From assembly GCF_053078305.1 (NCBI RefSeq), contig NZ_CP166879.1: a stretch of 64,000 nt of DNA; one strand, given 5' to 3'. The translations under genes and the position numbers were made by a program. A model generated the notes under the pieces. It saw only the letters and a list, made by a program, of their open reading frames with translations, was not told the DNA's origin and did not search any database. Numbering within the stretch: the stretch's first letter is position 1; each line of letters opens with the position of its first letter. This document shows positions 23,380 through 25,465 of the stretch, piece by piece.

Positions 23380-24669
23380 ATGACGCGCCGTGCTATCGGG
23401 GTGAGTGAAAGACCGCCACTTTTACAGACAATCCCGCTTAGTTTGCAACATTTGTTCGCCATGTTTGGTGCAACCGTCCTGGTGCCCGTCTTATTTCATA
23501 TTAACCCGGCGACTGTACTGTTATTTAACGGTATTGGAACGCTGCTGTATCTCTTCATCTGTAAAGGGAAAATTCCGGCTTATCTTGGTTCCAGCTTTGC
23601 CTTTATTTCACCGGTATTGCTGCTGTTGCCGTTGGGGTATGAAGTCGCGCTGGGCGGCTTTATTATGTGCGGCGTGCTGTTTTGCCTGGTTTCTTTTATC
23701 GTGAAGAAAGCGGGGACCGGCTGGCTGGACGTGCTGTTTCCACCTGCGGCAATGGGCGCAATCGTTGCCGTCATCGGTCTGGAGCTGGCGGGCGTAGCTG
23801 CCGGTATGGCGGGTTTACTCCCGGCTGAAGGGCAAACGCCAGACTCCAAAACCATCATCATCTCTATTACCACCCTGGCGGTCACGGTTTTAGGTTCCGT
23901 GCTGTTCCGTGGTTTCCTGGCAATTATCCCGATTTTAATTGGCGTGCTGGTGGGGTACGCGCTCTCTTTCGCAATGGGAATTGTCGATACCACGCCGATT
24001 ATTAATGCTCACTGGTTTGCGCTGCCAACCCTCTATACGCCGCGCTTCGAGTGGTTTGCCATTCTGACTATTCTGCCAGCGGCGTTAGTGGTTATTGCCG
24101 AACACGTAGGGCACCTGGTAGTAACGGCTAATATCGTCAAAAAAGATCTGCTGCGCGATCCAGGTCTGCACCGTTCGATGTTTGCTAACGGCTTGTCGAC
24201 CGTGATTTCCGGCTTCTTTGGCTCCACGCCAAACACCACCTACGGGGAAAACATTGGCGTGATGGCGATCACCCGTGTTTACAGTACCTGGGTTATCGGC
24301 GGGGCGGCGATTTTCGCTATCCTGCTTTCCTGCGTCGGTAAACTGGCTGCCGCTATCCAGATGATCCCATTGCCGGTGATGGGCGGCGTTTCGCTGCTGC
24401 TTTATGGTGTCATCGGTGCTTCCGGTATTCGTGTTTTGATCGAATCGAAAGTGGATTACAACAAAGCACAGAACCTGATCCTGACTTCCGTGATTTTGAT
24501 CATCGGCGTCAGTGGCGCGAAGGTAAACATCGGCGCGGCGGAGTTGAAAGGTATGGCGCTGGCGACCATCGTCGGTATCGGCTTAAGTTTGATTTTCAAA
24601 CTGATCAGTGTGCTGCGCCCTGAAGAAGTGGTGCTGGACGCAGAAGACGCGGATATAACAGACAAATAA
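23380..24669 (+). CDS. uraA: uracil:H+ symporter
   Basis: 429 aa from ATG 23380 ([24 protein letters not shown]...), polytopic NCS2-family sequence. Confidence 0.95.
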
Positions 24670-24676
24670 TGTACCG

Positions 24677-24699
24677 ACCGGGCAGTGTTGCTGCCCGGT
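24677..24699 (+). other. perfect 9-bp-stem hairpin after uraA (no U-tract)
   Basis: accgggcag tgttg ctgcccggt. Confidence 0.35.
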
Positions 24700-24763
24700 T
24701 CAAACATCATGGCATTCTGTGGTAAACTTCTCGCGATTTTGTGAAATCCTGGTTGAGGTATCT

Positions 24764-25465
24764 CTGAACACACCGGCACAGCTCTCTTTGCCACTTTATC
24801 TTCCTGACGACGAAACCTTTGCAAGTTTCTGGCCGGGGGATAACTCCTCTTTACTGGCCGCGCTGCAAAACGTGCTGCGTCAGGAACATAGCGGTTACAT
24901 CTATCTCTGGGCACGCGAAGGCGCGGGGCGCAGCCATCTGCTGCACGCGGCTTGCGCGGAATTGTCGCAGCGTGGCGATGCGGTGGGCTATGTCCCGCTG
25001 GATAAACGCACCTGGTTTGTTCCGGAAGTGCTCGACGGTATGGAGCATTTGTCGCTGGTCTGTATCGACAACATTGAGTGTATTGCAGGCGATGAGTTGT
25101 GGGAGATGGCGATTTTCGATCTCTACAATCGAATTCTGGAATCGGGCAAAACACGGTTGTTGATCACCGGCGATCGTCCACCGCGGCAGTTGAATCTGGG
25201 ATTACCGGATCTCGCGTCGCGACTCGACTGGGGGCAGATCTACAAATTGCAGCCACTTTCTGATGAAGATAAGTTGCAGGCGCTACAGTTACGCGCGCGT
25301 TTGCGTGGTTTTGAACTGCCGGAAGATGTGGGGCGTTTCTTGCTGAAGCGGCTCGACAGAGAAATGCGCACGCTATTTATGACGTTGGATCAGTTGGATC
25401 GTGCGTCGATTACCGCGCAACGTAAATTGACCATTCCGTTTGTGAAAGAAATTCTGAAGTTGTAG
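24764..25465 (+). CDS. hda: Hda, DnaA-inactivating AAA+ protein (RIDA), CUG start
   Basis: Product begins at [21 protein letters not shown]... with no in-frame ATG; the codon before NTPAQ is CTG (24764..24766); Walker A GAGRSHLL. Confidence 0.85.

Follow-up and report, generated by a model that had tools for sequence, protein, structure and literature searches.

The hda gene of the window, by which we mean the whole stretch of 64,000 nucleotides that was analysed, begins with a CTG codon (CUG in the mRNA) immediately before the codons for NTPAQ. The start had been placed there in an initial annotation made from the sequence alone, and both the sequence and the curated coding sequence bear it out; no in-frame ATG lies near the N-terminus of Hda in the window, as that annotation had also stated. 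The CUG start of hda is already known. It was published in 2008 and is curated, and the observation is correct, not new. Hda, a protein of very low copy number, is what chiefly keeps E. coli from re-initiating chromosome replication. We hold with high confidence a single explanation in which translation starts at CUG, a GAGGU sequence is placed for this start, hda probably has its own promoter, and the weak codon would keep Hda scarce. The analysis adds a quantitative account of CTG conservation, frame-breaking indels upstream, the overlap between the old GTG start and a -10 motif, and a likely two-codon mis-start in annotations elsewhere. Curated knowledge is left unchanged; the case illustrates that a real non-canonical start is recognisable from sequence alone. 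The features are listed in Table 1.

Table 1. Coordinates of the hda start region in the window
Feature	Position	Strand	Basis
Stem-loop directly after the uraA stop, 11-bp stem	24676..24700	+	Fold -22.2 kcal/mol, z = -4.76
Start GTG of the old 248-aa annotation, judged not to be the start	24719..24721	+	Overlap with -10, no Shine-Dalgarno sequence, frame breaks
Predicted extended -10 of hda, TGG TAAACT	24720..24728	+	Conservation of TGnTAnnnT in 85/85 loci
Shine-Dalgarno sequence GAGGT, 4 nt before CTG	24755..24759	+	Alignment columns invariant
hda start codon CTG (CUG)	24764..24766	+	Sequence, RefSeq/PGAP CDS start, invariance in 85/85 Enterobacterales loci
hda CDS, DnaA regulatory inactivator, 233 codons + TAG stop	24764..25465	+	HMM scores, 5X06 identity, b2496
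Codons 6-11, QLSLPL, beta-clamp-binding motif, extreme N-terminus	24779..24796	+	Sequence and PMC5397184

Sequence and annotation of the hda start

On the plus strand of the window, the CTG at 24764-24766 is followed by AAC ACA CCG GCA CAG CTC TCT TTG CCA (NTPAQLSLP). The mechanically derived open reading frame (ORF) is longer. It runs from 24719 to 25465 (+), begins with GTG, and encodes 248 aa; CTG is its codon 16 and in frame (24764 - 24719 = 45). The initial annotation had described an in-frame stretch of GTG and TTG codons back to 24719. The GTG is present and is the sole canonical start in this stretch, but an in-frame TTG is absent. TTG 24753 and GTG 24741 are both out of frame, and a second in-frame CTG occurs at 24749. 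This CTG was considered as a start and rejected, as it has no Shine-Dalgarno (SD) sequence and is frame-shifted in Citrobacter and others. An 11-codon ATG ORF (24709-24744) was likewise rejected as an upstream ORF; it is out of frame, it lies upstream of the predicted transcription start site, its ATG is unconserved, and we attribute it to chance.

The hda region of the window shares 99-100% identity with E. coli genomes. Of 5426 complete genomes of the species, 5425 match a 901-nt query spanning the site with at least 95% identity and have hda and uraA annotated there, and the gene order of the region, upp-uraA-hda-arsC(yfgD)-bepA, is that of an E. coli segment. Comparison with curated hda annotation, which had been proposed as a check, came out in favour of CTG in both sources consulted. 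The curated hda gene of K-12 in RefSeq (NC_000913.3, b2496) occupies 2618075..2618776 on the complement (702 nt), and its first codon corresponds to window position 24764. The PGAP annotation of another strain contains the same 702-nt hda CDS, which also begins on CTG. The reports of CUG initiation of E. coli Hda to which the initial annotation had referred are matched by RefSeq, by UniProt, and by EcoGene 3.0. According to EcoGene 3.0, hda was the earliest E. coli gene for which a CTG start was demonstrated; its passage on hda credits the demonstration to Su'etsugu et al. 2008 (PMC3531124). Between the hda gene of the window and the published E. coli gene (b2496) there is no substantive difference; gene, codon, and interpretation are all the same. 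The 2008 study (J Biol Chem 283:36118) reportedly described the CUG start of Hda, with N-terminal sequencing of the native protein, and a cellular content of about 100 Hda molecules; it is also said to have found that Hda in the correct frame is required for a fully active protein. hda was not mentioned in the main text of the Ribo-RET preprint or of the Salmonella riboproteogenomics paper. Literature searches for the hda promoter, for hda expression, and for reviews of non-AUG genes that list hda gave nothing useful.

Hda protein and the position of the clamp-binding motif

The identity of the protein is clear from two profile models. The whole protein scored 474.8 bits against NF005982, above the curated Hda equivalog cut-off of 268, and 281.7 bits against TIGR03420 (cut-off, 194.8). 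The Hda chain in PDB entry 5X06, a crystal of Hda with the clamp, consists of a 20-residue tag followed by MNTPAQ, and the rest is 100% identical to the 233-aa protein of the window.

E. coli Hda stimulates the hydrolysis of DnaA-ATP together with the DNA-loaded clamp, a process termed RIDA (PMC5397184, PMC5742627). Its clamp-binding motif has been numbered 6-QLSLPL-11, and G55, R56, S57, and R153 are further numbered residues (PMC5397184). When CTG of the window is counted as residue 1, QLSLPL, the P-loop residues G55-R56-S57, and the Box VII arginine finger R153 all fall at their published positions. The published residue numbers fit only the 233-aa form and thus support the CTG start. In diverse Hda homologs, the clamp-binding motif lies 1-12 residues from the N-terminus (called starts); leaders of this length fit the 233-aa Hda better than the 248-aa form, whose leader has 20 residues. 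The placement of the start is of practical consequence, as the older 248-aa annotation adds 15 residues before the clamp-binding motif.

Conservation of the CTG codon and the case against the upstream GTG

hda loci were taken from 80 Enterobacteriaceae species (GTDB). One locus was missed by the anchor motif, and the remaining 79 were compared together with the window, which gave 80 loci. The homologous start codon was CTG in 79/79 species loci and in the window. When loci from other families were included, CTG was invariant in 85/85 Enterobacterales loci, and TTG, GTG, and ATG had no occurrence at hda codon 1. CTG is the commonest codon of E. coli; its presence alone is therefore not improbable, and it is its conservation that exceeds chance.

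A different reading of the locus is that translation begins at the in-frame GTG 24719 and yields the originally annotated 248-aa protein, in which CTG would be an internal Leu codon. The frame is indeed open in the window, ORF calling and many automatic gene calls yield 248 aa, and the 248-aa form of Hda (P0002) counts 3510 member sequences. The Leu codons of the gene itself speak against this reading. The 80 loci share 31 invariant-Leu columns, and codon 1 is the only one that uses a single codon. The 30 internal columns use 3-6 different codons each, with a major-codon frequency of 0.28-0.89, and TTG was found in 25 of them, never at codon 1. Were codon 1 an ordinary internal leucine, synonymous variation like that of the other 30 would be expected. 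Of the four-fold degenerate sites of hda, 1/64 is invariant among the 80 loci.

The region before CTG points the same way. No in-frame ATG, GTG, or TTG occurs between the nearest upstream in-frame stop and CTG in 45/80 loci, which leaves these species without any canonical upstream start, and in 27 loci the distance from the upstream in-frame stop to CTG is only six open codons. In the alignment, variability at codon positions 1/2/3 was 0.06/0.009/0.189 downstream of CTG, with 0 gapped columns, and flat upstream of it (0.21/0.22/0.20), with 40 gapped columns. Codon periodicity together with an indel-free alignment from CTG onwards indicates that coding constraint begins at CTG. The 15-codon extension from GTG 24719 lacks codon periodicity, carries indels and stops in other species, and adds only two aligned positions to the match with the Hda family profile. 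Moreover, no purine-rich SD sequence is present in the 20 nt preceding this GTG, and a start there is contradicted by curated annotation and by the literature. Initiation at GTG 24719, which had been named beforehand as the finding that would speak against CTG, is thus extremely unlikely, and the CTG start stands. The comparative tests arrive at this start independently and support it on non-experimental grounds.

A start downstream of CTG was also weighed. The first canonical in-frame codon after CTG is found at residue 9 or later, and at residue 37 in 22 species; initiation at this codon would destroy the clamp-binding motif. In the window, and in 42/80 species, it is the TTG of codon 9 (24788-24790). 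However, a protein starting there would lose the QLS of QLSLPL, codon 9 is CTG or TTA in 38/80 species, no SD sequence precedes the TTG, and codons 2-8 show coding periodicity and conservation at the protein level. We assign the codon-9 start next to no probability, and retain CTG as the start.

The synonymous sites of hda codons 2-9 (24767-24790) are unusually conserved, with invariant runs through CCGGCACAGCTCTC, and the single invariant four-fold site of the gene is codon 4 (CCG). This pattern suggests that the initiation region is constrained at the nucleotide level as well as in its protein sequence.

Shine-Dalgarno sequence and initiation region

GAGGT was found 4 nt upstream of CTG in 79/80 Enterobacteriaceae loci, and the spacer was 5 nt in the other one (L082). 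Other Enterobacterales families have GAGGTG at this place, with a spacer of 3-5 nt to CTG. In the mechanism that we propose, the conserved GAGGU, 4 nt upstream, would position the 30S subunit on CUG, and the initiator tRNA would decode this codon with a first-position mismatch. The expected product is the 233-residue Hda, with the clamp-binding motif five residues from the N-terminus. RNA structure around the hda start was examined as a candidate regulatory element and rejected, as the region 24735-24800 folds no better than shuffled sequences (z = +0.58). In the spacer between uraA and hda, no Rfam family was matched.

Predicted hda promoter

GTG 24719 sits within TGTGGTAAACT, which matches the extended -10 motif TGnTAnnnT; in E. 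coli, the motif reads TGGTAAACT. TGnTAnnnT is present 33-39 nt upstream of CTG in 85/85 Enterobacterales loci (L003-L087), and in 6% of shuffled upstream regions. It is also kept in loci with another gene than uraA upstream, such as those of Proteus and Serratia aquatilis. In 77 loci the motif includes the equivalent GTG, but only 14 of these have it in the hda frame, which indicates that the DNA is preserved here and not a codon. The motif itself probably serves as the promoter of hda. On this basis, the hda transcript is predicted to start, probably, near 24735/24736, approximately 28 nt upstream of CUG. GTG 24719, being inside the -10 motif, would probably be absent from the hda-specific transcript.

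A consensus promoter and terminator scan of 24560-24860 made no call. At the extended -10, only 8/12 hexamer positions match the consensus, which accounts for this result; the promoter proposal consequently rests on conservation. Among the Cappable-seq entries listed, none was near 2618800.

One E. coli strain, SCPM-O-B-8794 (L004), carries a 1-nt insertion approximately 15 nt upstream of CTG (AAATCCCTGG vs AAATCCTGG). The insertion falls between the -10 motif and the SD sequence, and the old GTG is out of frame there, even within Escherichia.

The uraA 3' hairpin and possible dual initiation

The stem-loop in the uraA-hda spacer, whose 3' arm GCCCGGTT is conserved in the alignment, is a probable uraA 3' end or terminator-like element. 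The stem is followed by only UU; for this reason the terminator scan makes no call, and the element does not qualify as a classical intrinsic terminator. A weak -35-like sequence, TTCAAA (24699-24704), shares its first bases with the 3' end of the stem, from 24699.

A hairpin without a U-tract and without a scan call makes some read-through from uraA plausible. On read-through transcripts, a minor extended isoform could be made from GTG 24719 while CUG served as the main start, and the K-12 frame stays open as far upstream as this GTG. Such dual initiation has to contend with the lack of an SD sequence before GTG 24719, with an extension that is unconserved even in Escherichia (the 1-nt insertion of L004 takes the GTG out of frame), and with a 20-residue leader before the clamp motif, unlike the 1-12 residues of the sampled Hda homologs. 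We consider a second isoform very unlikely, and hold to initiation at CUG.

hda starts in other Enterobacterales and in distant Hda

In other Enterobacterales families, Hda is mostly annotated as a 235-aa protein that starts with MLLNTPAQ. In Yersinia (L083), Erwinia (L084), Proteus (L085), and Dickeya (L086), the sequence at 395-412 is GAG GTG CTT CTG AAY, and the 14 nt GAGGTGCTTCTGAA are identical in the four families. The GTG annotated in these four makes up the last three bases of the GAGGTG Shine-Dalgarno sequence and has no SD sequence of its own. Their CTG has the same SD geometry as that of E. coli. Judged from this arrangement, the 235-aa Hda calls in Yersiniaceae, Erwiniaceae, Morganellaceae, and Pectobacteriaceae probably contain two codons in excess, and the real start is probably CUG. 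With an in-frame GTG two codons upstream, inside the SD sequence, the exact start in these four non-Enterobacteriaceae families is ambiguous from sequence.

The Serratia aquatilis locus (L087, 385-405) reads GAGGTGCTTTT CTG, and three codons before this CTG there is an in-frame TGA. A 2-nt insertion puts the GTG at the SD tail out of frame in this species, and PGAP calls a 233-aa protein. Owing to the in-frame TGA, CTG alone can serve as the start there. CTG is conserved across at least five Enterobacterales families. NF005982, the NCBIfam model, likewise has 235 positions.

Six distant Hda representatives (L088-L093), with 45-63% identity, have the called starts GTG, GTG, TTG, ATG, TTG, and ATG. 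Four of these six genes are non-ATG, which, in a small sample of gene-caller starts, hints that weak starts may be common to hda genes in general. There are also hints that automatic callers still misplace the hda start, at 248 aa in E. coli and at 235 aa in other Enterobacterales.

Does the weak start codon limit Hda?

Initiation at CUG reaches approximately 1-2% of that at AUG in reporters (bioRxiv 10.1101/063800). In the proposed mechanism, the poorly initiating CUG would keep Hda scarce, and across Enterobacterales selection would hold CUG in preference to UUG, GUG, or AUG. The absence of TTG, GTG, and ATG from codon 1 in 85 loci, even though TTG is frequent elsewhere in the gene, suggests that the weak codon is maintained by selection, in keeping with the published suggestion of a restricting role. 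Support for the view that the weak CUG codon limits Hda levels is only indirect.

It could be argued that CUG is the start, but that its weakness is an unselected historical accident and that the abundance of Hda is set mainly by transcription or turnover. In the outgroup, two of six hda genes have a called ATG start, and the 2008 study is reported to have offered the restriction of Hda by the inefficient codon as a suggestion rather than a test. Yet TTG, GTG, and ATG are each one base change away and would each be a stronger start, and none is seen in 85 loci from five families. TTG is common at 25/30 other Leu columns and is absent at codon 1, and the called starts of the other four outgroup genes are weak too (GTG or TTG). 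An accident of this kind seems unlikely, and we favour a CUG held by selection.

In E. coli, infC (encoding IF3) and pcnB start with AUU. These starts are near-cognate and inefficient, they belong to low-abundance regulatory proteins, and they are believed to hold expression down. The CUG of hda is likewise a near-cognate, inefficient start on a low-abundance regulatory protein. The mismatch differs: it is in the first position in CUG and in the third position in AUU. The AUU of infC is part of a demonstrated autoregulatory loop that acts via discrimination by IF3; hda is not known to have such autoregulatory feedback. By analogy, the fixation of CUG might couple Hda synthesis to initiation fidelity (IF3, 30S maturation), with the 235-aa mis-start as a lesser corollary. 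We regard this coupling as doubtful. If it were true, the capacity to inactivate DnaA-ATP would be coupled to the translational and growth state.

A second CTG start in E. coli K-12, that of yfjD, is given in EcoGene 3.0 (PMC3531124). It was predicted from conservation and inspection of the ribosome-binding site, the reasoning also applied here to hda, and it was confirmed by start-codon mutagenesis, described as unpublished results (EcoGene 3.0, PMC3531124). In gene and function, yfjD is unrelated to hda.

Neighbouring features in the window

The mechanical ORFs of the two genes upstream of hda are also longer than the curated genes. The upp ORF extends from GTG 22641, while the curated start is ATG 22668, and the uraA ORF extends from TTG 23338, while the curated start is ATG 23380 (RefSeq coordinates converted). 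The longer upp and uraA ORFs are ordinary over-extension by the ORF lister and not a feature. Between hda and arsC/yfgD, the segment 25473-25607 contains REP/BIME-like palindromic repeats, which give sub-threshold matches to naRNA4, a REP-derived Rfam family (28-31 bits vs a gathering score of 59.5).
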